The notes beneath the pieces are model-generated. The model had not been told where the DNA came from and made no database searches. It saw only the letters and a list, made by a program, of their open reading frames with translations. This document shows, piece after piece, positions 5,852-41,968 of a stretch of 49,932 nucleotides of DNA. This DNA comes from Catajapyx aquilonaris (lineage: Eukaryota). The stretch is taken from NCBI GenBank assembly GCA_000934665.2, contig KZ538751.1, positions 1 to 49,932 of the forward strand, written 5' to 3'. Every line of letters starts with the position of its first letter. The first letter of the stretch is position 1. Made by a program: the position numbers and the translations under genes.

Positions 5852-6195
5852 ACCATGGCCTCAACCAGCCCCCGGACACTTTCCCTACAATCTTATCGCC
5901 TGCCGGGGCGTTTTGCATGAGGTGCTCACCTGAGAGCGCCATGAGACCTTTCACTGCTGTATTATGTGGCGACCCTACCAGACTACGCTGAACTTTATAG
6001 GTACAAAAGGGAAGCGCTATTGGGTGACCCAACTTGGTCGCCGGCGGCCATGTTGGGCCCGCATGGTCGCCACGTAATACAGCAGTGAAAAGCTATCTCA
6101 TGGCGCTCTCAAGTGAACATCTCGTGCAAAAACGCCCCGGCAGGCGATAAGAGGGAGTGTCCAGACCTTAGTATTCTAAGACCATGGCCTCAACC
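5852..6195. mobile_element. Foldback/MITE-like element with ~85-bp inverted arms, flanked by a 15-bp direct repeat
   Basis: Arm 5891-5974 (tcttatcgcctgccggggcgttttgca...tgtggcgacc) is the imperfect reverse complement of 6065-6152. ACCATGGCCTCAACC occurs at 5852-5866 and 6181-6195. Confidence 0.7.
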
Positions 6196-9100
6196 CAAGA
6201 CCGCAACAAACATTACAATAAAGAAGTATTACTGGCGTGAAACGTAGGATTGAGTACTGGTACGCCTGTGGTAGTAACGCCGCCATTAGCAGTTCCGTGA
6301 TCAATAACAGGCACTTCCAGAGAGCCGTCTCGCCTCTTCCTTCCACGTCTTAACATCCGGTCTTCCCTCCCTCTTCTTCCCTACCGAACAATAATGTTTA
6401 GCAAGAACCCCTAGTAACAAGCTTTAGAAATCAGGAGGGTAGCCTGTGGGCCTCCCTGGAGAAACGTAAACGGGAAGTCACGGGGAAGCACACTTCATTC
6501 ATGATTACGTAATGCATCCCGGAAACATTCACTTACAACGTCAGACTCTTGGGATGCAGCTTGTGCTCCAGGGTTGAGAGGGTGGTGCAGTACACTTGAA
6601 ACCCCCCGAAAAAAAAGGAAGGGAGCCGTGAAAAAGCAATTAGAAATGGCGGGTACGACCAGAGATTTCTGTCAGTGGGAGCGTCTAAGCCTGGGCCCAG
6701 TGGGGGCGCAATCGTGCCAATCCTCTTTGCACTCTATAGTAACGAGATGAGCCTGGGTAGTGTTGAGGCCTGGTGCAGTGTTGTAAATGACTAACTTAAG
6801 GACCACGTTAAGGTGCTGGGTTTTTGGGCAGCCACCGTGTGTTCCTATTTTTTGGGGGGAGGTAATTCAATAATCGAGCTCCCATGTGGCGGTCGGTGTG
6901 TACCATGCGTGAAACAAGTCTTACGGTGCAAATTGATGTGGGAGTTGGACTGACCAATGCGGTGGTCAGTGGAGCAGCAGACATGGGAAATGCGCCCCTG
7001 CAATGCTAATCAGGGTAATAAACAAACAGAGGGAACGGACATTAATCAGATTTTGGGGACGCCATATTCTAGCGTGTGTCGTAGAACAATCTAACGTGAG
7101 GACCAGACTAAAAATGGCGAGTTTGGATCGATCGGGGATTTTACGGTTGCGGTCCGCTTCATGCAGCATGGTATAGACCCGAGTTAATGAGTCGAGGGAT
7201 TCTCACGGCACTATTGAAATGGGGTAGGAATTTTCAGAGAGTGGGGTGTTGGGGGGGATGGGGGTAAAAGATTTATGGCAACAAAGTACTGGAGATAAAT
7301 TCTGAAGGTTCAAGTTTGAGGGAACCAAATCAGCCCCTGGCTGGTCATGCGTCATGAGGACCAGGGACAGTTCGGTAGCCAAGAGGGAGTTCATTGTTGA
7401 GCGTCGGCAAGAGCATCAATTACCAGGGAGGAATGGGGGGAGGTGCAAAAGTTTCTGAAGATGGGCCAAGCAGTTGGCATGCAATGTTTCGTAATCTGAG
7501 TATTATGCAGATTGGAGTTTCCCCTGGAGTTTTTTGGCGGGCGGGTTGGGAATGCGATGGTCCGTGTCTTCTGCCGGTGTAAGTGTAGTTGAAGTTTGAG
7601 AAATCTGGTGTCATTGTTCGACACCTTTTGTGCTATTTTGGAGAGCCGGGATATAGACCTTGGGGGCGGGGAGGTTGCCAAGTGGAACAGGGAATTGTCA
7701 AAACAGTCGGAAGCATGTAAGTGACCCGCATGACAATGTTTGGGGCGGCTTTTTCTGGAATAAGCAAATATGACATAAGTAGGGTGACGCAATATGCCGA
7801 TTACGTCACTAAAAACCAGGAAGTGTCTCCGCGCCTTATGACGAATATCTTTCTAATGTTCAGTCCCATTTAGATTTCCAAGGCCTCCTCGGAATGAACC
7901 GAGTATATACTCCTTTGGAAACGACCCAAGGATGAAAGCTGTGTGCGGAGATCATGGGCATAAATCCTTTGTCAAGGACACTTTTCCTACCCCCCTCTCC
8001 GCCGTTGATTCGTGCGAGGATATCAAGCATGCAAGTGCGCCGCGACACTGACAAATTGTTAAATTATTCCCATCGCGCCTGTTTTATTTTACTTTTTTTG
8101 CACCCCAGACGCGACATTGTCCCGTGGTTTTGCGACAAGACATACATGGCTGAGAGGTGCCGCCCATTTTCAGGCCGTTCGGAGATGATCCGCGGCAGTT
8201 CAGCGTTGCGGAATTCCCATAGAAGACACCGGGAGCAGCCTAATGAGGCGTTACCTTTTTAATGAGATCGGGCGCTAATGGTATAGCCTCTGCAGGCTGG
8301 GTCAGATGAGTGCGTGTAGGCCTGGTCCTTGGTTTAAAGTTGACCCTCTTCGCCGACAGTTCGGCCAAGAACATGGAGCTAATTCATTTTTAAAATGGAT
8401 TGGTACAAACAGTTTCGTGCCGTCCACGCCATCTCTTGGCGGATCTCTTCGGCAATATTAGCTGATATGAAAACATTTGGAGCCGATGTTTTTTGTTTCA
8501 TTGGTGCAAAGCTATTCCGCAATGGGCATCAAATGGCCATCATTGGTACACAACAAGGGGGGTTGGTCGCAAACAAATTGTGTCAAGTGCAAATGGCGAT
8601 GCGAGATACATTTTCCGGCTGTCCGCCGAAATGGGCTGGGGCTCTGGACAAAATGTCCATCATTACTGTCCCGATTCATAGGCGCGTTAGGTGCTTGAAC
8701 AATGAGAGATAGCGGGGGCGTCCCAAAGGCTAGGGGCTTTTTGCGGCGTCAAAATGAACTGTTTTGTTTCGAACCCATGTCGTTTTTCAGGGACGGACCT
8801 CCCCGGTATACTTCCAGCGCTGCATGTTGATTACTGAAATTCTATTTCATCTGCTTGTTACTCCGCGAATGTGGGCCCTCTGCCGCAATCAGTGATAATT
8901 GCTAACCCTAATTTTACACCCATGAAGTCGTTAAGCTGGCCGGTAGCTGATTGGTCCCATGGCTGTTATTTACCACGCACTTTTTTTTTTTGTAGCAATG
9001 TAAGTTACAGGACATAGCAAAAATAGATGGCGAAGAATCGAGGCTCATATGACTGAAAAGTGGACGCTCGCTTCGTTTCATTACAATGCATAATTGAAGC

Positions 9101-22582: not shown

Positions 22583-22759
22583 GCCACCAGTCCCTACCTG
22601 ACAGGTGTACCGCAGGTCGGTAGCACTTTCAGCCCCTACTTCAGCCCAAGTCCCCTGGTGCCCCTGGTGCCCCCTGAGGCCGCTGTGGCCTCCCCATTGG
22701 GTGTGGTTCCTCAGTCTGTGGTCACGCCACAGAAAGTGCCCCGATCAGACCGCCTTGAG
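22583..22759 (+). CDS. mbl: Muscleblind linker exon ending in RSDRLE
   Basis: cagcag|GCC...GAG|gtatgt, 177 nt, phase 0/0. Translates ATSPYLTGVPQVGSTFSPYFSPSPLVPLVPPEAAVASPLGVVPQSVVTPQKVPRSDRLE. The tandem CAGCAG acceptor also allows a start at 22580. Confidence 0.95.
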
Positions 22760-24108: not shown

Positions 24109-25859
24109 GTGAGCCAGACTCATATTCTGTATCTTTTGCTTGCCTTTTTGTGGCCCTTCCCACTATTCTGTACTTACTTGGCTCTCTCTCTCACGCAGCT
24201 GTTCTTCCCACATCATATAGGCTACCACCAAACAAGGCATGCAGGATGTCATCAAGGTTGACGCTTTGGGCATTGTCCTTCTGCTTTTTGGATCTGCACC
24301 AGTATTTTACCCTCATGCATACCAGCATTTTCGAGTGCCTTATTTCCTTCAGCAACAGTGATTCCCCCCACCCCCCACCCCGTACTGCTACTTATAACCA
24401 CTCGAGGCTCCGTCACAGGCACTGCACACCAAGGGGAAATCTGTGATGGAACTCTCTGGGCATTGGAGATCCACTCCTGACACGCTCACAGTTTGCCTGC
24501 TCTTTGATGTTGGGAAAGGGGAATCGGTATTATGCCTCAAGTACCCAAGGCGTGTGCATCTTGTTTATACCATGAGTAATAGCTTAACTGTGCCGTTAAT
24601 ATGAACTTTTGTTGAGGTAGTAATATCGCAAGATTAAATGGAAGTAATGAACTGGAAGAGCCTTAGGTTGATAGCACCTAGGAGAGTGCAATGGCTTCAC
24701 CAAAGAGCATTGCTGTAGGTACTTAATGCTTCAGGAAAAAAACTGGCCTGGCAAGTAGAATCTTGTTGGGAATGTCATTGTACTTATTTGGGTACCACTG
24801 ACCAGATGATCCTCAGGCTATTTGACTGTATATTTTAATGTGTAGGTCGGTCTTTGATTCATCTTGAAGTCTAATATAATTTTAGGGTTATTTTTTTAAA
24901 AAAAGTGTGTCATTACTGTGTTTTCCACTAACCAGTTGCTGTGAAAAGTTCTTTAAAATGCTAGGCATAACCAAATAATAACAATGTGATTTTTGCCCAA
25001 TTTTGTGGGAATGTAATATTTCTAGAGGGGTAATAATATTTCCCAACACAAATGCACTTGGAGTTGCTTTATCACATCAGATTACGTACATGGACAGGAG
25101 TTGCATACCAGATTTGTGCCCTGCTTGAGTGGCAGTATGGTTGTACCTGCCTGCGTGCGATACACCTCCCCCCTGCCCCTGCCCCCCCAGTGGTAGTATC
25201 CTCCCCCACCTGCTATTTCTGCTGTATGGTCTGCTGGCTTGGACAAGTAACCCCCTGCATTACAATACCTCAAGCTGGAATGCCTTTCACTATACCCATG
25301 TCTTCCATGATCCCTTCCTAGGGTATGAGCACTTCAGATGAAAAAATTTGCAGAACTTGACAATAACTTTTTGTTTAATTAGAAAATGAGCATGTTCTTG
25401 TTCCATGCTCTGAAATTGCCATGGTAAGCAATGTGATGTATTCTCAACCGTATGCATTGCTCAGAAATCTTGGTTAATTTTGTGTGCTCCTCAGAATCAG
25501 CAGATCCAACAGATAGAGTTGTACCTTGAGAATATGACATTCAGCAAGTGGGGTTTTTCCGATATCTGAAACATTCCATGTGAGGATTAGTTGAATAGTG
25601 TTCCAAGTTGGTCCATGCTGACACTGAGTGATGCTTTGTAGAGTTCAGGAGTGCTGATCCCTGAGTCGATCCCACCAGACTCTGAACCCTTGATTGTAAG
25701 AGGGCCACCACCAGCAACCTCCTGGCCAGGAGCCCATCTTAGCCTGCTGCCCCCCCAAAGCCCCCCAGCCCCCCGCCCCCCTCTTAGGCCCCAAATCCCC
25801 AAACCTATGGGCATCCCAGTGCTGTAGCTGTAGCTTGGCTTCATTCCTCTCTGCTGTAG

Positions 25860-26084
25860 GTCTGCCGCGAGTATCAGCGAGGAGCGTGCAAACGTGCGGA
25901 GAGCGAGTGCCGCTTTGCCCACCCCCCTGACTCCGTGACGGCCAACGAAGACGGCACTGTCACGGTCTGCATGGACGCTGTGAAGGGGCGCTGCAACCGC
26001 GACCCTTGCCGCTACTTTCACCCCCCTCTCCACCTCCAAGCCCAGCTCAAGGCCGCACAGTCACGGGCCGCCGCTCCCCAAGTG
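25860..26084 (+). CDS. mbl: Muscleblind exon: second tandem CCCH zinc-finger pair (ZnF3/ZnF4)
   Basis: tag|GTC...GTG|gtaggc, 225 nt, phase 0/0. Translates [75 protein letters not shown], with CX7CX6CX3H and CX7CX4CX3H spacing. Confidence 0.97.
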
Positions 26085-30132: not shown

Positions 30133-30289
30133 GCCACAATGTTTTTTCTTTTTTTAATTACAACCTCTTTTTTTTCGTCTCTTCCGGATTAATTATTGCC
30201 TTTTGATTATTTTTCTGATTTGTTGTGCTCATTTTCTTCCCACTCGGGCCTCCCTGATGCTTGGCTGCTTGCGTGCCTGCTACTAATAG
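30133..30289 (+). promoter_or_regulatory. AG-exclusion zone with YGCY cluster upstream of the 78-nt cassette exon (putative Muscleblind response element)
   Basis: No AG from 30133 to 30287. YGCY at 30197, 30226, 30258, 30266, 30274 and 30278. The pyrimidine tracts are displaced upstream (30142-30242). Confidence 0.65.
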
Positions 30290-30367
30290 CCCGTTTCCGT
30301 CGCAACCGTTGCCGGCGTGGAAGTGGGGAAGAAACGCGGCCGTGACCCTAGCGATGACATACTACTG
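30290..30367 (+). CDS. mbl: Muscleblind 78-nt cassette exon with basic NLS-like motif
   Basis: tag|CCC...CTG|gtacca, phase 0/0. Translates PVSVATVAGVEVGKKRGRDPSDDILL. It is a GC-rich island in AT-rich intron and sits just before the KRPA exon, like vertebrate MBNL1 exon 5. Confidence 0.8.
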
Positions 30368-33183
30368 GTACCATAATGCTTTGCATGTCACTCCTTTTTG
30401 TTTTTTTTGTTTTTTTTATATACAAAAAGTAGGAGTAGAGGTGTAGTGTAATGCAGGGTCACATGACATCACCTATGGATTGCAACTTTTGTTTTTTCAT
30501 TTTTTAAATTTTCCAATTGGCCTTTGCAGAACTTGTTCTGAGTTGTTCAGTACTTGCCACTAGTCAACTCTGTGTCACTCACCAACTTGTGAACTACGGG
30601 CAGGCTGACATTTAAAATACAAGTATAAACTCTAAGACTCAATTATCCTGCCATCCTACGGACGACAGTACTGATGAGTACTGAATGCCTGTCTCAACAA
30701 TCAGCCTTCATGATATACTGACGATTGGGAGTCACAGTTTGGTAGCCTCTTGCAGAGATTTGGTTTTTAAAATGTGATTTAATTTGGTGACAGTCTCGTA
30801 TATCCAAAATTGGGGACATCTTGGGGACCTATTTTATTGCTTATTGTGATTTTATTTTTGATTATTTGTATGGAAAAGCATGGCTACCAGCATTGCCCAT
30901 GATTACTCATATGACTACCGGCATATGCAGTAGATATAAAATTATATGCTTATGACATGTACATGCAAACGTTAGGCACTTTCAGATAGTGCAATTCCTA
31001 GACCAGATTTGTTAAAAGCTGTGTGCACCATGGATAGGTAAATATATTTGGTGAGTGATTCAGTATGAAAGCATGCCTGGAAACATTTGTCGGATCTCCC
31101 GAGTTAGTGCTGCCATTTTATTACCTCACTTATTTCACATAATGTAGGGAAAAATCCATTGCATCTTTAGAGATGACGTTCATGTCATGTGATCTTACCC
31201 CCTTTACATGATATTATTTATTGCACAAGCATTCTTTTTGAGTGAAGCTTAGTGAGTGTCACTGAACCAAAAAAAAAAGGCATTTGTTTATTTACTTTAT
31301 ATTTAAGCTTAACCAAAGTAGCAATGCTGTTTCCTTGAAGGATGTTGGTAGTGGTACTAGCCGCATGCAAGTCAATCCAGTTTTTGCGGTGAGATTCTCA
31401 GCTTCACCACCATTACACCTGCTGCTGTGCATTTGACACAAAGTACTGTATCTCGTAGATATTTGGGTGCTTCTGATTCTCAGTCTATGGTTAGGGGTCA
31501 CAGTGTTTCTCTCTTTCTTTGCATGATAGGCCAGCTTCCAAATTGCCACGTACGGGAAATACAGAAAAATAATAATTGCACATAGCGGCTGCCATATCTC
31601 AAGCATAATCCTGGCCCATTTCCTCACACTCCTGCCTTTCACTGCCTTGGCCATCAAAATTAAATTAATTCGCTCTGTGATGAATTGCGTGAGGAGCAGA
31701 AGGAAATCAGCGGACCACAATGCATGTAATGCTTCTTTCTCTTTCCTGATATTTTTATTTCTTTTTTGGAAAAAAAGAAAAGAAATCTGCCTTCATTTGT
31801 GATTTTGATGCTATTGTAGTCACCAGACAGCAGTAATGCTGCGGTGATGGATTCAGTTGCCTTGACCTGTTGTCTTCTCTTCCGAACCTGAAACAATTCG
31901 TGTCAGTGTTATATTGACTGATTTTCAGTTTGGCTGTGCTTTTTGCCATTGTCTTTCCCCCCCTCAGTGCCTACCGAACTACGCGGAAGTTTGTTACTTA
32001 GAACTTCATGTTTGCTGTTTTGTTTGTGCCCAATGAAGTGATTATTGTGAGCTAGGTAAATTGTTTTTGCTTCATGGTTGCACTTTTCCATTCTTTATTA
32101 GGACACTGCCATCGACCCACCTAAATGGTGCATAATTTTGATATTATTCGCCTATAAATTATGGCAAATATGTAAGTGTGTAGGTTGTACCTGGTGAGTA
32201 TGTGTTATTTTTATTCGTGGTGTTTCAGTATGCAACGAGTTACTATTCACTGATACATAATTTACCAGTATAACTTGAATCCATTGTATTTGTTCCAAAA
32301 ATGATGATATTTTCAGCTAGTAAATGCTTTTCAAGTAGGGAATAGGAGACCAGGTTGTTACACTTGTACAACTCTGTTTTAGCTTAATAATTAGGTCCTT
32401 AATTCCTACTGTTAAGTTGCTAGTTTAGAGAGAGAGAGGAAAAAAGTTGTGTATTTTCTTTGCCACTACTTACTGTGTCGTGTGATTTTATGTGTGGTGA
32501 AGACACATGAATATATGTGTAATTAGGCTGTTGCAATTTTAGGGTACATGCATAAATCTCCGAGTTATTAGTGCATGTCAACTAATGATTGCATAGGACA
32601 TCCAATTTGTCATCTAATGTGTGCATCACATGCATTTTGGCCAAGCTTCTGCCTCATGGGGCTTGTGGGGCAGGTGTGTAAATAATTACCCATGACCCAG
32701 TTTACCACCAATGACTACCACCCTGTAACATGACTAGTAAAAATGTTTGACTGTCACATTTGTTTCATGCAGGAATTGTTTTTCGCTGGTAATTAACAGC
32801 GTCCCATAAATTGGCGGTAAGTGCATTGAAATAACTGTGACCAACGATGTTGCTTTTCTTTTTTTTTCTTGGTCATCGTCATCACAGCAGCAGCGTCAAG
32901 ATATTTGTACCAAATTATGTGTGAAGTTGGATTATTACATTACACAGAAGTAGGTTATGATTTACCTAGTAAGAGGAGATGAACTGCATGTCTCCAGACA
33001 AATACTTGTTTTTTTTTCCTTTTTCTATTGTTTATGGAGCATCAGAAAGGAAGACGTGCAGTTTTCCCTGTAGGACATAGGTTAGTGTGTAGCTTGTGCA
33101 TAGAATGCGAAAGAGTTGTGTAATGTGTGAGAGCGGAGGCTATTGGCAGAGGGGCAGATCTGTAACATGGTCGTTCCTTGCAG

Positions 33184-33310
33184 GCCTTTCCAGGCATGGT
33201 GCCATACAAGCGGCCGGCAGGGGACAAGTCAGGAATGCCAGTGTACCAGCCCAATGCCACCGCCTACCAACAGCTGATGCAGTTGCAGCAACCGTTTGTG
33301 CCCGTGTCAT
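33184..33310 (+). CDS. mbl: Muscleblind KRPA exon, short form using the internal donor
   Basis: cag|GCC...TCAT|gtgagt, 127 nt, phase 0/1. Translates AFPGMVPYKRPAGDKSGMPVYQPNATAYQQLMQLQQPFVPVS. Confidence 0.92.
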
Positions 33311-34329
33311 GTGAGTACCAAGGAGGCGCCTCCTCCTCCTCCGCAACTTCCACCCCCACCCCTGCGGCCCTGCAGCTGGACTCTGTTGTGCCCGCCCCCC
33401 ACCACCAACAACTACAGCAACTACACCACCAGCTACCTACCCCGTCCGCTTACACTGCACAGCAAAACAACTTCGCAGCTGTTGCCACTTCCTCATCCTC
33501 CGACAGCCCGTCTCCAACCCATGTCAAAAATGATAAAAGTGATAATCCTGAGATATCCACTGCAGTTACTGTGGCTAGTGGGACCACCACCAGTTCCACC
33601 TCCTCTTCCCCAGTGCTGACTCGCAAGGTGAAGGACACGGTGCCACCCCCTCCTCCTCCTCCACCCCCGCCACCTCCCCTTCCCCCAACCTCTTCTTCTT
33701 CTGCCCTTCTAATGGGAATGCGGCCTGCCACTTACCCACCAACAATCAACCCTGTGACTGTCCTCTCCTACACAGGCGTAGCTCTCAACAAACAGCCAAT
33801 GGTGGCTGCTCCTCCTCCACACCACCAGCAGCACCACCACCATCCAGCTGTCGCTGCTCAGTACCCATTCTTTGCAGCGGCGGCTGCTGGCTTGCCACAG
33901 GGTGCGGCTTTCCCCTTGCATGCTGCCCATAGTTTCAATCATCAGGCCCATCAGGCAGTATCTGCTGCAGCCTACCCCCACCACTCCCACCCAGCAATGG
34001 CCAACTCTGCGGCTGCAGCTGCTGCTGCGGCCGCGGCTGCTTTGGCCAATGCTCAGAGGCCGGCCAATGCTGCTTTGATGCCCCAGTTCGGGGCAGCCGG
34101 ACTTGGGGCAATGGGCATGGCTCACCCACAGATGAGCCAGCAGATGGCTGCTGCTGCGGCAGCTGCAGCTGCACATGCACATCACCAGGCAGCAGCACAG
34201 CAGGCCGGCCTCATGAATAACTTCTTGAGTCAGTATCCCTTGGGCACCACTGCCACCACCACCAACAACAACAACCTTCTCCTTCTAAATGCTAATGTCC
34301 AGCCTGCCAAGCGCATGAAAACTATGTGA
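33184..34329 (+). CDS. mbl: Muscleblind long terminal exon (donor at 33311 unused): low-complexity Ala/Pro/His/Ser tail ending PAKRMKTM*
   Basis: The frame stays open for 381 codons (ORF track 33178-34329). Contains poly-P, poly-A, SYTGVALNKQ and a basic C-terminus. Confidence 0.88.
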   Translation, partial: AFPGMVPYKRPAGDKSGMPVYQPNATAYQQLMQLQQPFVPVSCEYQGGASSSSATSTPTPAALQLDSVVPAPHHQQLQQLHHQLPTPSAYTAQQNNFAAVATSSSSDSPSPTHVKNDKSDNPEISTAVTVASGTTTSSTSSSPVLTRKVKDTVPPPPPPPPPPPPLPPTSSSSALLMGMRPATYPPTINPVTVLSYTGVALNKQPMVAAPPPHHQQHHHHPAVAAQYPFFAAAAAGLPQGAAFPLHAAHSFNHQAHQAVSAAAYPHHSHPAMANSAAAAAAAAAAALANAQRPANAALMPQFGAAGLGAMGMAHPQMSQQMAAAAAAAAAHAHHQAAAQQAGLMNNFLSQYPLGTTATTTNNNNLLLLNANVQPAKRMKTM

Positions 34330-36455
34330 GGAGGATGAGGAGGGTTGCGGCAACCAGCCGGGGAAAGCCTGAAAATCCTTCCCAGTACACACACATACAC
34401 GTACATATACATGCCCATCCACCCCCGATCCACGTTGTGTTTTTTTTATGCGACTCTGGTGGTGGTAGATGCAAGTCTTTTTTAAACATTTTGTGGGCAG
34501 GCCCAGTGCAGTGACCAAAAAAGAAATTCCAACAGAAGTAGGGTGAGAGAGGCTCGCCCTTCCCAGACGCACCTGACGTTATTTTTTTGCACCCTTGCTT
34601 TCTGCATTTCTTTCATAAGAGCCACTAGGCACTCACCCAGTTTTATAAAATCTTATTACCTGTATATGCACACACCAAGCTGTTGTGTGGGAAAGGTGCT
34701 TTGGCGGGCGTGTGATGGACCAAGCTGTAATTTGTTTTTTTCTTTCTGTCTAACAATCATTGTCGTCCCCCCTGGACCCCCAATCTCCAAATGATTCCAT
34801 TGCCTTAAGCACACGTCTTCCAGAGTGTGTTTCTAAGGGGAGTGAAAAATTGACAAAACGTTGTAATGCCATTGTAACAAAAGGGAGTCAGAAGCATTTA
34901 AAGAGATTTGAACAGGTGCGTTTCCGAGGGCGAGCCTGCTGGGCCGTGTCACACCTTTGCATAACAATGCTAGATGTTTGACATCTAGTCACATTTTAAA
35001 ATTCCAAGTCACAAAGTTTATCATTTGTAAACAAAAATGTTGTGAAAGTATTAATATTTTTTGTAGCTAATCTAAAATAGTACTGTGATGTGTTAGTGAA
35101 GAAAACACTAAAATATATAATATATATTATATATATAATAATATCTATATTCCTATGTCATGGTCACTATTATAGATTTTAGTTGAAAGATTGTTTTGAC
35201 ACTGACAAGATTTTTATCCTTGTTGACAATTGAGGGGAAAAAAAGGAAAAAAAAAAAAGCGAGAAGAAGTAAGCATTTTTGTGCAGTTTCGCTCCCAGTG
35301 ATGTTTACAAAACTAGATTGCAAAGCGGAAGGAAAATGATGATAACTGATTGGGTATGGGGAGACCAAGTGTCGCTTTTGTTGCTTTCCTGGTGCATTCA
35401 ATTTTTCCGCAATTGTAGTCCAGTGCAAGGTGCAAGAAAAGGTGGTGGGTTCTATCCCACACTAGCCTGCGTTTGCATGCTGCTGTTGGGCTCCCACTTA
35501 AGCCAGGCAGATTTTAAAAAGCTTCCAACATTTTCCAGCTAAAGTACAGCTGTGATTTTGCTTGGCATATTATATTGGTTGTATTGTTGAAGTTGTACCT
35601 CTGTAGTGCCAAAGTAGTGTCAGCTGTTTTTTTAATTCCTATTATTATTATTATCATTCTTATTATTATCACCATTATTGACTTTTTATCACGTATATTA
35701 GCCTATTGCAAAATAAAAATCATGTGGAAATTTGATGAATACATGATGTAGAATTAAGCGCATCTACCAGTGATAAATCATAACCTTATTGCTAGGGTGA
35801 TGCAATATTTTAATCCACGGATTATGTAACCGATAACCGAGTTAATAGGAGCCCCCTTTTGCTGTAGCAAAATAATGCAGTGGCGAGGATTTTTCCACTG
35901 TGTTGCCATACCCAAATGATGGCTCTGACCCGAATCTGTGACAGACAACCTCGTTTTAATGTACTTAATTTTATAATGCTATTTTTTTTAATTTTCTCTT
36001 TCCACACTGAAAATAACCTGCAATCGAGTTTTATGAAATCTTTTAAATCGCATGCCTGCCATTTCTAATTTGAGATAGATGTTGTACGTAACAGTAACTA
36101 GGCATATTAATCAGTACTGTTAGTGTACAGTAATTTTTTATTACTTTAGCAATCATAATACACAAAGAGTACAATTTGTAGCATGCAGGGTTTGTAAATA
36201 GTAGGCCATAATATTAGTGTATCAGTTGCACACTTGGCGACCGAACGTGTTAATATCATTTTAGTAAACAAATAGTAGGTAATCGCGAGAGAGCCTTTGG
36301 GATACAAGAATAATGTTAAATATATGTTACGTTTAGTTACATTGCATTAGACATGCGTACAATAGGATGTTGATAGCTATTGTTGTGACCAATGATGTCA
36401 TTTTACTACAAACATTCGCAATGATAGTCCATGACTTTGCTGCTTTTTGAATAAA
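34330..36455 (+). other. mbl: Probable 3' UTR of the long-tail isoform, with candidate polyadenylation signals
   Basis: AT-rich sequence after the stop. AATAAA at 35712-35717 and 36450-36455, and a Pumilio-type TGTAAATA at 36193-36200. The true end is unknown. Confidence 0.45.
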
Positions 36456-39400
36456 AATTTCACAATCATGAAGTTGAGGGAAAGTCACTAGTGTCACCTG
36501 CAAAGTCAAAAACTAGTCGCAGAAGCATTTTGCAGTGCACAGGTTTTATTATACTTTCTGTGTACCATATGAAACTTGGCCATAAAATGGCATGTGAATG
36601 ATGCCGATAATGTTTTGAAGTAGACATTTTTTCTGGCTGATGTTCTGGATCGTAGGTCAGAAAGTTTTAACTCTAGTCGGACAAGGGGCTGTGTAACGTA
36701 GTAAAAGAGGCCCGCCATGTAATAGTGCACCACATCATATATACCTTTGGTTGGAATGCTATTGACACAGTTTGATGATGCAAGGAATCATGTGCGGGAC
36801 AAGCCTCTCTAGCAGGAGTAAAGAGCAAGAACAGCGGCGCTGCTTTGCATTGAGCTTGAAATTAATGAACATGGGTGCTGGGGGAGAGAGGGGAGGGAGG
36901 AGAGAGTCTTTTTGCTTTGGCACTGACAGGGGCAAAGAGCAGGTGACGTGTGTGAGCCAGGGAGGTAAGTGAGGTAAGGTGGTGGCACATGTGAGTTTCC
37001 CAAGGTATACAGAATCCAGTGTGGACAGAGTTGCTTCTCGGACCAAATTTCATCCGTTCTTTAGATAGATAAAAAAAATATACAAGCACAGATTCCGGTT
37101 CTTTGATCGAATCCGCAAGGATATCAATTGACAGTCGAGTCGCCTTAAGAGAAAGAGCAAAATGAAAAGAGAAGGCATGAAAAAGTGGAGCAGTCCTTGT
37201 CGGTGACCATTTTTGAAGTTGTAGCATTATTTTCAACTTCTTCCAAAGTGCAGTTGCTGATATTTTGCTTTCATTGTCCTCTTCTGCTGTCCAGTTTGGG
37301 TTACAAGGTTGAACTGTAGCATAGCTTGCTTCTTAAAGTATATACCAGTGTTGTATACAGTGCTGTACACCTTGGGATGTGTAATGTAATGTCTAATCTT
37401 TGCTGATTTTTTGTATGTAAATCAGCAGCACAATAATAATGCTTAAAAGTGCATGATAATTGTTTTATTAATCCTTCTCTCTTCAAGATTCTCTCTCCTA
37501 AAACCCTGTATTGAGTTCTGGACTTTTTTTGAGTTTCGCCAGTGTTTTTTTTTTACAAATTGTTTTTTCGGTTCCTTTTGACTTGCATTTTGTGCGTGCG
37601 CCTGTGCCAGAGGTAAGCAACTTCCAGATGTCTACTAACCCTCTATTAGCTTTGGCCATAGGCACTGGTAGCTTCTGCCGCAGTGGAGTAGAAACAAAAG
37701 AATCTTGCACACCTTTTGACCTGATGGTTGGGATGGGATGGTTGTTGCCGGCTATTCAAGCTTGTTGCTTACTAGGGAGAGGGCAGCGAAAACCATGGGA
37801 CACGGTCCGCTCTGTACCGACATGTGCGGGACAAGGTCCGACACCATGTGTGTGTGCGTGTGGGTGTGAGTGCGTGCGATATGCATTGCAGGTCTGCTGT
37901 GTCATTTCAACAGGGCTGCTTTTTTTCACCTGGTGTGCATGGCCTCCAACACTTGCCTTTAGAGCCCTTGCAGCTTCTATTGTCTTAAGTGCTGCTGTTG
38001 AAATGAATCAGTGACCTGCCAGTTACATTTGGAAACTAAGTGGGGGTGCAATCACCTGACGAGAGAAACTCTAAAAACCAGCTTCACTCTACCTACCGCC
38101 AGCAGCATATCAGAATAGTAGCAGAAATGTCGTCCTGGAGCGACAGTAATTGTGCAAGATCATTGTGATAGACTGTGTATAATAGTGACGCTTACTTGTC
38201 GCGTGCGAATGCAGATGGTGCGTGTGTAAATGTGACTACAGATGTACACGTTTACTTTACAGTAGGTGTGCATTCCTACATCGACCCGAGGCATCCTGGT
38301 GTCAACTGGGTGGATTCATAACAGGGAACTAAATACATCTCACCAGGAGAAATTATAAGCGCAAGATGCCAACGGCTCGGAGAACAGGCTCGAGCAGCGG
38401 AGGAAAATGAAAAGAACTCTTTTTTCCAAATTTTTTGTGTTTTTAGTGTGGTGTGATATTTAGGAAAAGAAAAAAATAATGTTGATTCGTTTCTTTTGGA
38501 CAATGAAGAAGTCAATTATATAACGTCTTGTATCTCATTCAAGTGGCTTACCTCTCCAAGTATTTGAATCTTGCGGAAATGTTTTCTTTTTTTTTCTTCT
38601 TCGTCGTGGACTCCTTACTGGTCACGTAGGAATGCACAGTAGCTTATAAGAAGAAGACATTAGTGAAATCAGTGCACTTGTCCCATGGTTTCATGTCCTT
38701 TTCCGGAGAGCATATAAAATCTGGAGTAACGTAGTGTGGGAACCACTGGATGGCTAGAGGCACTAGCAAATGGCATTTGATTTATTCTCGTTAGGTCAGG
38801 TTTTTTTGCCCGGTTCTGTTGCATGTTGCAAACAGAACGTTGGTTGGTAGAACAATTTGTTGTTCCTAAAAGTGCAAGAGACAAAGGGGGAGTAGCCAGT
38901 ATAAAAGATATAATACAATATGATGTCAAGTGTTGTTTGTCATGGTTGAGTTACATCAATTTTTACATCAGTGCTTGGCCCTGAACTTAGAAAATCTAAT
39001 ATTAGAAATTCATGTCCAAGAACTCACGGGTCAGGGGCATTGGTGGTAAGTATTGGTCTCTGTGAAAAATATATGCAAAAAGTGATGTTAATGACGTTAT
39101 GAAAAATGGAATAAAAAAAGAAGCCAAATCAGCAACAATCAAATGGACGGCATACAAGTTTGCTTTCCTCATCCAGGCAAAAGGCGCACAGGTGCACATC
39201 TCAATTATTACGACTACAGTTTTGCGAAGTGTTTCCGTTAGTTTTCATAGTTTAGCACATCTCTGCTTATTCTGAGTATGTTGGCTTGAAGCTATTTATT
39301 TATTTATTTTGGTTTCTTTGGCACCTTTTTTTCCAGTACAAGCCCATGTTTTTGACCACCCAAACGCTGGTTATCCATTCATGTATTAGTGAAGCTGTCA

Positions 39401-39496
39401 CGTGGAAGGTACACCACAGATGGTTATGTTCCCCAAACAACACATTTTTTGCCCCAGGTGCTTTCATAACCTCATTTTAACAGCGACGACTTCAAG

Positions 39497-40251
39497 ATTT
39501 GTTGTTTTGCGCACGTTGTATAATGATTTTCTCATTTTGTTTCGTCTCTTCCTTTTTATGCTTTTCTGGCGATGTTTGGCTGTTGACTCTGCACCTTCCC
39601 CAATTCCTGGCTTCCTGAACATCCTCTGCCATCTCATTCCAACCGCACGTCATGCTGCGGACACCTGCCCTCACCACCATCCGGATGTCCTGATGTTTCG
39701 TTCTGGACGACTCCCAATCCCAATCCTCACGAATGGCTTGGAAAATTACCTCATTCAACCATGGTCATCCTCTCCACATACACCCAAAAAAACCAAATTG
39801 CAATGCGGTGATGGTAATGTGTTAACACACTTTTCCTATCTGCCAAACTCTGGTGTCTGTTCAACATGGGCAATACTTTTTGGCCCTTTTTTTACCCCAC
39901 TCATCTCCCTCGTATCGCAATATGTTTGCGTGGCCCTTGGAATCAACACTCGGCTGCAATGCAAACACACTAACACCCTCTCTGTACATTTTTTGTTGTT
40001 GTCTGGGTTGCAAAATATGCTGGGGTTCTGGGGGGTATGGTCACCTTTTTGAAAACAAAATAATAATGGGGAGAAAAATGGCAAAACAAATCCTGTTGCG
40101 GTTTGGGTGGATGTCCAATACTCTGCTCTGCTGCGTTGGCACGGACTACCCCCACTTCGACCTTCCTGGCCTGGCCTGTTGCACTCGGTGTGACCCTTGT
40201 GCGCGCCGGAATGACCTGCTGCTTGGCTGCTACTGCATGGTGGGACGGTAG
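39497..40251 (+). promoter_or_regulatory. Very long AG-exclusion zone with candidate distant branch point and YGCY cluster
   Basis: No AG in 39497-40071, one GAG at 40071-40073, none in 40074-40249, then TAG at 40249-40251. CACTAAC at 39968-39974. YGCY at 40124, 40129, 40204, 40217, 40220 and 40228. Confidence 0.75.
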
Positions 40252-40310
40252 CCTTGCACGCAGTGCCCAGTAATGTGCATAGTGTTGTCTACACTGATGA
40301 AAATGGACAG
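40252..40310 (+). CDS. mbl: Muscleblind 59-nt frame-switching cassette exon
   Basis: tag|CCTTG...GGACAG|gtagac, phase 1 in and phase 0 out. Translates (S)LHAVPSNVHSVVYTDENGQ and joins the KRPA exon in frame to LLDTLPVCQDF. An in-frame alternative acceptor gives a start at 40264. Confidence 0.85.
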
Positions 40311-41264: not shown

Positions 41265-41349
41265 TTGCTGGACACCCTCCCGGTGTGCCAAGATTTTAAG
41301 CGCAGTCAGTGCCGATGCCCATCCTGCAAGTACGTGCATCTGCTCGAAG
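41265..41349 (+). CDS. mbl: Dual-frame Muscleblind exon: ZnF5 (phase-0 entry) or FAGHPPGVPRF* terminus (phase-1 entry, stop 41297-41299)
   Basis: ttttctctttccatag|TTG...GAAG|gtacaa, 85 nt. One frame reads LLDTLPVCQDFKRSQCRCPSCKYVHLLE (CX7CX4CX3H). The other reads T+TT GCT GGA CAC CCT CCC GGT GTG CCA AGA TTT TAA. Confidence 0.92.
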
Positions 41350-41561: not shown

Positions 41562-41968
41562 ATCACAAGGAGGTGGTGGACAGCAAGGTGACAGTGTGTC
41601 GTGATGCAGAGAAAGGGCAGTGCTTTCGTCCCCTGTGCAAGTACTACCACATCCCCATACCTTTGCCCCCTGCTGGCGACATGGCCCCCCACCACCACCA
41701 CCATCACCACCATCACCTGGCCTCGACTGGAAGCAGCACCATTGCCGTCAGCACCAACAACACTACGACCACCACAGCGGCCGCCTTCTATCCGGACGGT
41801 TGGGGGGCCTGGGTGCCTATGGACGCCATAGTCCCCTGTGCGGGTGGCTGGATCGGAGCTGCCCCTGCTCATTCTATGATGGATGCCACTATGCAGGGAG
41901 AGTTGCATGCAGCATCTGCTGAGGATGGGTTCCGGGTGCTGGCTCCAGTGCTGGCTGGAACAGGCTGA
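41562..41968 (+). CDS. mbl: Muscleblind terminal exon: ZnF6 and poly-His tail
   Basis: cag|ATCAC, phase-1 entry matching the donor after 41349. Translates DHKEVVDSKVTVCRDAEKGQCFRPLCKYYHIPIPLPPAGDMAPHHHHHHHHHL...AGTG* (CX7CX4CX3H). Confidence 0.9.

Follow-up and report, generated by a model that had tools for sequence, protein, structure and literature searches.

MBNL1 represses its own 54-nucleotide (nt) exon 5, which completes a nuclear localisation signal (NLS); for this vertebrate autoregulation PMC7901844 cites Gates et al. 2011. According to PMC7901844, the intron before that exon has its branch point at −141 and, downstream of it but ahead of the 3′ splice site, a 90-nt region of multiple YGCY motifs. 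NLS exons of this kind are repressed by MBNL or MBL-1 itself, in vertebrates by way of YGCY sites in the upstream intron (PMC7901844 and PMC10773944). In C. elegans, exon 7 of mbl-1, which encodes a KR motif, is repressed by MBL-1; putative conserved YGCY sites lie on either side of this exon, and a GCAUG for FOX-1 in its upstream intron co-represses it (PMC10773944). All Mbl homologs tested, those of fly, worm, Ciona and Trichoplax among them, repress an MBNL1 exon 5 minigene (PMC5041496), and at exon 5 of cTNT (TNNT2) MBNL1 competes with U2AF65 (Warf et al. 2009, as described in PMC7901844). Here we describe two identical 12-mers in the muscleblind gene (mbl) of Catajapyx aquilonaris, most of which lies on the + strand of a 49,932-nt stretch of contig KZ538751.1 (assembly GCA_000934665.2; the window), and we weigh whether they may belong to a comparable feedback circuit of the encoded protein, Mbl.

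The window carries an exon with a KKRxRD motif in the gene position of MBNL1 exon 5, that of an alternative exon that encodes part of the NLS and follows the exon for zinc fingers 3 and 4 (ZnF3/4). Much as YGCY motifs stand between the −141 branch point and the acceptor of MBNL1 exon 5, this NLS-type exon is preceded by a 155-nt AG-free zone with four YGCY motifs in its last 60 nt. The vertebrate exon has 54 nt and an AAG acceptor and lies in a 212-nt vertebrate ultraconserved element, whereas the exon in the window has 78 nt, a TAG acceptor and candidate branch points. Like mbl-1 exon 7, the NLS-type exon combines a KR motif, nearby YGCY motifs and a GCAUG-type word; the worm word is in the upstream intron, whereas in the window UGCAUG follows the NLS-type exon and also precedes a second exon, the leader exon of a third zinc-finger pair. 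The worm protein has one zinc-finger pair (Irion 2012, PMC3315501) and no third-pair module. At cTNT exon 5 the MBNL sites flank the polypyrimidine tract near the acceptor and favour a stem-loop; the second 12-mer of the window can likewise pair across its acceptor, although its predicted fold is not significantly better than those of shuffled sequences.

Two identical 12-mers before muscleblind acceptors

The 12-mers, the exons that follow them and the AG-exclusion zones in which they lie are given below, together with a third copy of their core.

30258–30269, + strand: 12-mer copy 1 (UGCUUGGCUGCU), at −32 to −21 of the NLS-type exon acceptor
40220–40231, + strand: 12-mer copy 2, at −32 to −21 of the leader exon acceptor
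25833–25840, + strand: 8-mer core GCTTGGCT once more, its third and last copy in the window, at −27 to −20 of the ZnF3/4 exon acceptor
30290–30367, + strand: NLS-type exon, 78 nt, PVSVATVAGVEVGKKRGRDPSDDILL, acceptor TAG/CC, weak donor GTACCA; recognised by insect homology
40252–40310, + strand: leader exon, 59 nt, (S)LHAVPSNVHSVVYTDENGQ; its weak GTAG donor is kept in ortholog contig L002
30133–30287, + strand: AG-exclusion zone 1, 155 nt, T-rich, before the NLS-type exon
39497–40249, + strand: AG-exclusion zone 2, 753 nt with one AG (40072), before the leader exon

The preliminary description of this DNA had reported identical 12-mers at −32 to −21 of two acceptors, each separated by exactly 20 nt, of which the last three are TAG, from an exon that starts with CC, and both the positions and the spacing were borne out (TAG at 30287–30289 and 40249–40251). 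It had also placed both copies within AG-exclusion zones and had noticed a second shared word overlapping them or just downstream. The zones are indeed there, zone 2 comprising 176 AG-free nt next to 40252 and another 575 past the AG at 40072, and the word is CTGCTACT (30277–30284 and 40227–40234), of which the window holds five copies against 1.17 expected, a number reached in 0 of 100 shuffles. The 12-mer itself, TGCTTGGCTGCT, has just these two matches on both strands of the window, even when one mismatch is allowed; at up to one mismatch 0.31 would be expected by chance, and at least two matches arose in 2 of 100 shuffles. Each copy is laid out as two UGCU motifs, UGCU-N4-UGCU. The match between the sites stretches upstream to CCTG.TGCTTGGCTGCT (16 of 17 bases), and aside from this block and TAGCC the two acceptor regions do not align.

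By homology, both exons are real. Exons were mapped by tblastn with six insect isoforms, a CCCH motif scan and inspection of junctions; the closest protein matches are insect Mbl isoforms, with up to 93–94% identity at the conserved start of the large exon, and none of the protein matches was seen to come from the same species. The identification of the gene as muscleblind and of the first exon as NLS-like, both made in the preliminary description, is upheld. The KKRxRD exon lies between the ZnF3/4 exon and the exon beginning AFPGMVPYKRP, and its counterparts in Ischnura (P0016) and Hetaerina (P0025) are 85% identical to it. A conserved third CCCH pair does follow the second exon, as had been proposed. 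The term cassette exon fits this leader in part only: it opens an alternative 3′ module, to which splicing proceeds from a donor inside the large exon (33310/33311). A model splicing 33184–33310, 40252–40310, 41265–41349 and 41562–41968 is open across all three junctions and colinear with Ischnura P0122 (79% over 131 residues), as well as with Schistocerca P0121, Xylocopa P0123 and scallop P0124. The acceptors of the exons at 30290 and 40252 are both backed by colinear alignment to insect Mbl isoforms.

The exons for ZnF3/4, the NLS-type segment and the leader are exactly those that are optional in predicted isoforms of other insects. The NLS-type exon is included in P0016, P0025 and P0121 and skipped in P0058 (Periplaneta), P0003 and P0125. 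Skipping of the ZnF3/4 exon is seen in P0025, a predicted isoform without these fingers, and in P0003 and P0125; the last of these lacks both the NLS-type exon and ZnF3/4, yet has the third pair. In P0126 the leader exon is skipped.

We also followed the 8-mer core. Counting both strands, GCTTGGCT occurs three times in the window against 2.06 expected, that is, without overall enrichment, and all three copies are on the + strand, 20–31 nt ahead of alternative-exon acceptors (25833, 30259 and 40221). For the shared register, the −60 regions of the eight mapped mbl acceptors were simulated as first-order Markov chains, each trained on its own upstream 200 nt. An identical run of at least 12 nt in the same register among the eight acceptors arose in a fraction of 0.00015 of 20,000 simulations; a second null, in which the real sequence was slid to random registers, gave 0.0017, which is an upper bound because this null includes the true match whenever the registers coincide. 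An 8-mer common to at least three of the eight acceptor zones was seen in 0.0026 of 5,000 simulations, and, given the 12-mer pair, one of its five 8-mers recurred in the six other acceptor zones in 0.021 of 100,000 simulations.

AG-free zones, motif clusters and ortholog introns

Gooding et al. 2006 reportedly described a class of exons that have long AG-exclusion zones and whose branch points lie far upstream. Frequencies of such exons come from Pineda and Bradley 2018, as quoted in PMC7901844. The NLS-type and leader exons of the window resemble this class in that an AG-free tract of more than 100 nt ends at the acceptor of each of the two. Zone 1, 155 nt long, is compatible with a far-distal branch point before 30290; TTAAT at 30154 (−136) and at 30189 (−101) are candidate distal branch points. 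Unlike typical members, the leader exon has an extreme zone: within 39497–40249 there is one AG where base composition predicts 31.9, a depletion that no other dinucleotide approaches. As a separate observation, UACUAAU at 30280–30286 is a nearly perfect word of the branch-point-like or ACUAAY type; ending just 3 nt ahead of the NLS-type exon acceptor AG, it is too close to serve as its branch point.

Both acceptors are also rich in Mbl-type motifs. A YGCY cluster lies in the upstream intron close to the NLS-type 3′ splice site, and four YGCY motifs fall within −60 to −1 of each exon, a count at percentile 98.6 of all 60-nt windows in both cases. With UGCU, GCUU and CUGC counted instead, the same interval holds seven before 30290 (percentile 99.2) and eight before 40252 (percentile 99.7). 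The densest windows overlapping the sites, 30219–30278 and 40174–40233, hold eight each and tie for second among + strand windows, behind a poly-alanine coding stretch. The 12-mer contributes to all these counts.

Two copies of UGCAUG stand close to these exons, in a window that holds 67 in all against 40.7 expected (67 was reached in 0 of 100 shuffles):

40234–40239, + strand: UGCAUG, an Rbfox-type word, at −18 to −13 of the leader exon
30382–30387, + strand: UGCAUG, an Rbfox-type word, 15 nt downstream of the NLS-type exon donor

Placed before the leader exon and after the NLS-type exon, these words would predict opposite effects on the two exons.

To compare the flanking introns, we scanned metagenome contigs with the conserved beginning of the large exon as anchor and obtained 12 insect-like loci; no relative emerged from prokaryote genome contigs or viral contigs. 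Two of the 12, L002 and L004, contain the leader exon (SIATVPQNSPYVVYTDEHGQ) together with finger 5; they are near-identical at the exon and diverged elsewhere. Before the leader exon, L002 has an AG-free tract of 484 nt (6040–6523), with 0 AG against 18.3 expected, and L004 one of 483 nt (ending at 8121). In both loci the last 200 nt before the exon contain nine YGCY motifs, TGCTTG at −47 and UGCAUG starting at −35; for UGCAUG near the leader exon the comparison thus covers two near-identical ortholog contigs. The window and L002 can be aligned at the last part of the leader exon and the weak GUAG donor that follows, with 26 of 28 bases matching, and nowhere else. The AG-free property before this exon is nevertheless clearly maintained across lineages whose introns cannot be aligned. 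Two other loci, L010 and L011, carry fingers 1 and 2 and the start of the large exon without introns, and look like transcript-derived or processed insect mbl copies.

Explanations for the shared element

We tentatively favour, at slightly less than even chances, a reading in which the 12-mers are the 3′-splice-site-proximal parts of Mbl binding clusters that lie between a distant branch point and a regulated acceptor in mbl pre-mRNA. For the first 12-mer, an Mbl-bound silencer is the explanation we consider most likely, because the NLS-type exon has the autoregulatory layout of the family: it is the corresponding exon, preceded by a long AG-free zone, with UGCU-type motifs by the acceptor. 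The same reading is plausible for the second 12-mer because its regulated acceptor is even more unusual, and the observation as a whole is somewhat strengthened by the third core copy and by the conserved giant AG-free zone. At high nuclear levels, Mbl would bind UGCU-N4-UGCU about 20–32 nt before the AG and compete with U2AF and 3′ splice-site recognition, so that the exon would be skipped. The 78-nt KKRxRD exon would then be the arthropod counterpart of the loop formed by MBNL1 exon 5 and mbl-1 exon 7, in which less of the NLS exon means less nuclear protein. At the 59-nt leader exon, the same block would disfavour isoforms with fingers 5 and 6, and the long isoform ending at 34329 would be made instead. 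The motif and its register, both exons, the AG-exclusion zones and the enrichment of UGCU-type words are observed; Mbl binding, the direction of its effect, the branch-point positions and any function of the identical sequence and register are what we infer, as is the coupling of two exons by one element. The autoregulation put forward in the preliminary description appears, on this analysis, partly supported, and this by analogy.

Several observations weigh against this reading. The enrichment of YGCY is moderate and partly circular, as the 12-mer supplies two of the four motifs, and the central GGCU of the 12-mer is not YGCY. The third core copy lies in a context, AGCUUGGCUUC (25832–25842), without any YGCY, which weakens a pure YGCY reading. 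All statistics on register and core are post hoc and nominal only. In L002 and L004, whose introns are unalignable to the window and which are too distant to be informative on a single 12-mer, neither the 12-mer nor the core GCTTGGCT occurs upstream of the leader exon, and what these loci have in common with the window is a class of features (AG-free zone, YGCY cluster, UGCAUG); for L002 the absence of the 12-mer is weak evidence because the alignment is limited to the exon end and donor. None of the 12 metagenome loci yielded the NLS-type exon, so that no ortholog upstream intron was obtained for it.

Another possibility is that the resemblance is a coincidence between two regulated 3′ splice-site regions that both have long AG-free, GC/U-rich tracts, so that the identity and register of the 12-mers have no function beyond their generic motifs. 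We regard this as possible, if on balance unlikely. Repeated 12-mers are common in 50 kb, the match was picked post hoc, the two regions are unalignable apart from CCTG.TGCTTGGCTGCT and TAGCC, and L002 and L004 keep the zone, the cluster and UGCAUG while keeping neither the 12-mer nor its position; a chance origin sits poorly with the same-register probability of 1.5e-4 under the composition-matched null and with the location of 3/3 GCTTGGCT copies 20–31 nt before alternative-exon acceptors (conditional P about 0.02). Shared ancestry of the two intron–exon junctions, as remnants of a duplicated acceptor module, would fit the 17-nt block with its 16 matches and the TAGCC in the same register. 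It is highly improbable in our view: the peptides of the two exons are unrelated, the 20 nt from motif to AG do not match, and each exon is ancient and conserved on its own in insects, the third pair occurring in bivalves as well. We rejected it because no extended repeat was found between the two sites.

The absence of YGCY from the third core copy, AGCUUGGCUUC, would be accommodated if the shared GCUUGGCU(GCU) were read by an agent other than Mbl, either another splicing factor or an RNA stem pairing GGCU with AGCC across the UAG/CC acceptor, an explanation to which we give a small chance. For another factor, a literature search on GCUUGGCU or related words together with MBNL1 named no candidate. 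A stem would account for both the fixed spacing and the CC start of the two exons, and at the second site the minimum-energy fold pairs GGCUGCU with GGUAGCC over the acceptor (−23.1 kcal/mol, z −1.63, with 12 of 200 shuffles folding as well); the L002 acceptor is likewise in a predicted local hairpin. When pieces of about 110 nt and 57 nt were folded at the three sites, however, no energy was clearly better than those of shuffles, this z of −1.63 being the best. The first site has no stable fold (z +0.83 for the 57-nt piece and +0.34 for the 111-nt piece), nor has the ZnF3/4 site (111-nt piece, z +1.51), and the whole L002 piece gives z +0.14. The ZnF3/4 exon begins with GT, not CC, and a stem of 4 bp closing a loop of about 20 nt is marginal.

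A bolder version of the favoured Mbl reading takes GCUUGGCU, which has the longer form UGCUUGGCUGCU at two sites, as a silencer dedicated to self-recognition, at a fixed distance of 20–32 nt before the acceptors of all three optional modules: fingers 3/4, the localisation exon and fingers 5/6. We think this improbable. If true, a single kind of contact with the machinery at the 3′ splice site would allow rising Mbl to reduce both its valency for RNA (six, four or two fingers) and its retention in the nucleus. The constant register would then be due to steric competition with U2AF or to base pairing over the UAG/CC acceptor.

The gene map, the third zinc-finger pair and feedback in the family

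The remaining mapped parts of the gene are as follows.

20242 to about 20415, + strand: second half of finger 2, from the exon mapping
22583–22759, + strand: linker exon (...RSDRLE), from the exon mapping
25860–26084, + strand: ZnF3/4 exon (...SRAAAPQV) with donor GTAGGC, placed by tblastn and junctions; skipped in some ortholog isoforms
33184–34329, + strand: large exon, AFPGMVPYKRP...KRMKTM plus stop codon, which ends the long isoform
33311–33316, + strand: internal donor GTGAGT inside the large exon, after ...PFVPVS plus T, opening to the third-pair module
41265–41349, + strand: finger 5 exon, LLDTLPVCQDFKRSQCRCPSCKYVHLLE
41562–41968, + strand: finger 6 (VTVCRDAEKGQCFRPLCKYYHIPIPLPP), a His-rich tail and stop codon

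Weak donors follow four exons of the alternative region: GTAGGC (26085), GTACCA (30368), GTAGAC (40311) and GTACAA (41350). Between the NLS-type and large exons most insect isoforms have a 14-residue mini-exon, MDMKSVGSFYYDNF, which is present in L006–L009 and was not detected within 30368–33183 by tblastn or pattern search. Upstream, GC skew is positive throughout the first 22 kb, mostly intron (0.09 to 0.24 per 2-kb window), and about zero or below after that.

Homology establishes the third CCCH pair as a real alternative C-terminus of Mbl, as read from the sequence. The CCCH scan found two CX7CX4CX3H motifs, at 41286 and 41597. Against the Pfam muscleblind-type CCCH family PF22628, finger 6 scores 31.5 bits (cut-off 27) and finger 5 alone 21.4 bits, which is under the cut-off; the family matches five stretches in P0121 and six in P0124. 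Predicted isoforms from Orthoptera, Odonata, Hymenoptera and scallops have orthologous third-pair fingers. In the window, nine consecutive histidines come after the third pair. Insect Mbl is credited with one or two finger pairs in Irion 2012 (PMC3315501), and a full-text literature search for a third pair or six fingers in muscleblind found nothing relevant; the pair is conserved from scallops to insects without a describing paper having been found by that search.

The general picture of how MBNL proteins act is unchanged by these findings. With its very long AG-free zone, the leader exon is a promising case for very distant branch points. Control of the localisation exon by the protein itself is regarded as central to the MBNL family and has been demonstrated in vertebrates and nematodes; an arthropod gene with the same layout would bridge the two. 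Action of the same element on a second exon would be new, and would tie the feedback loop to isoforms with the third finger pair.

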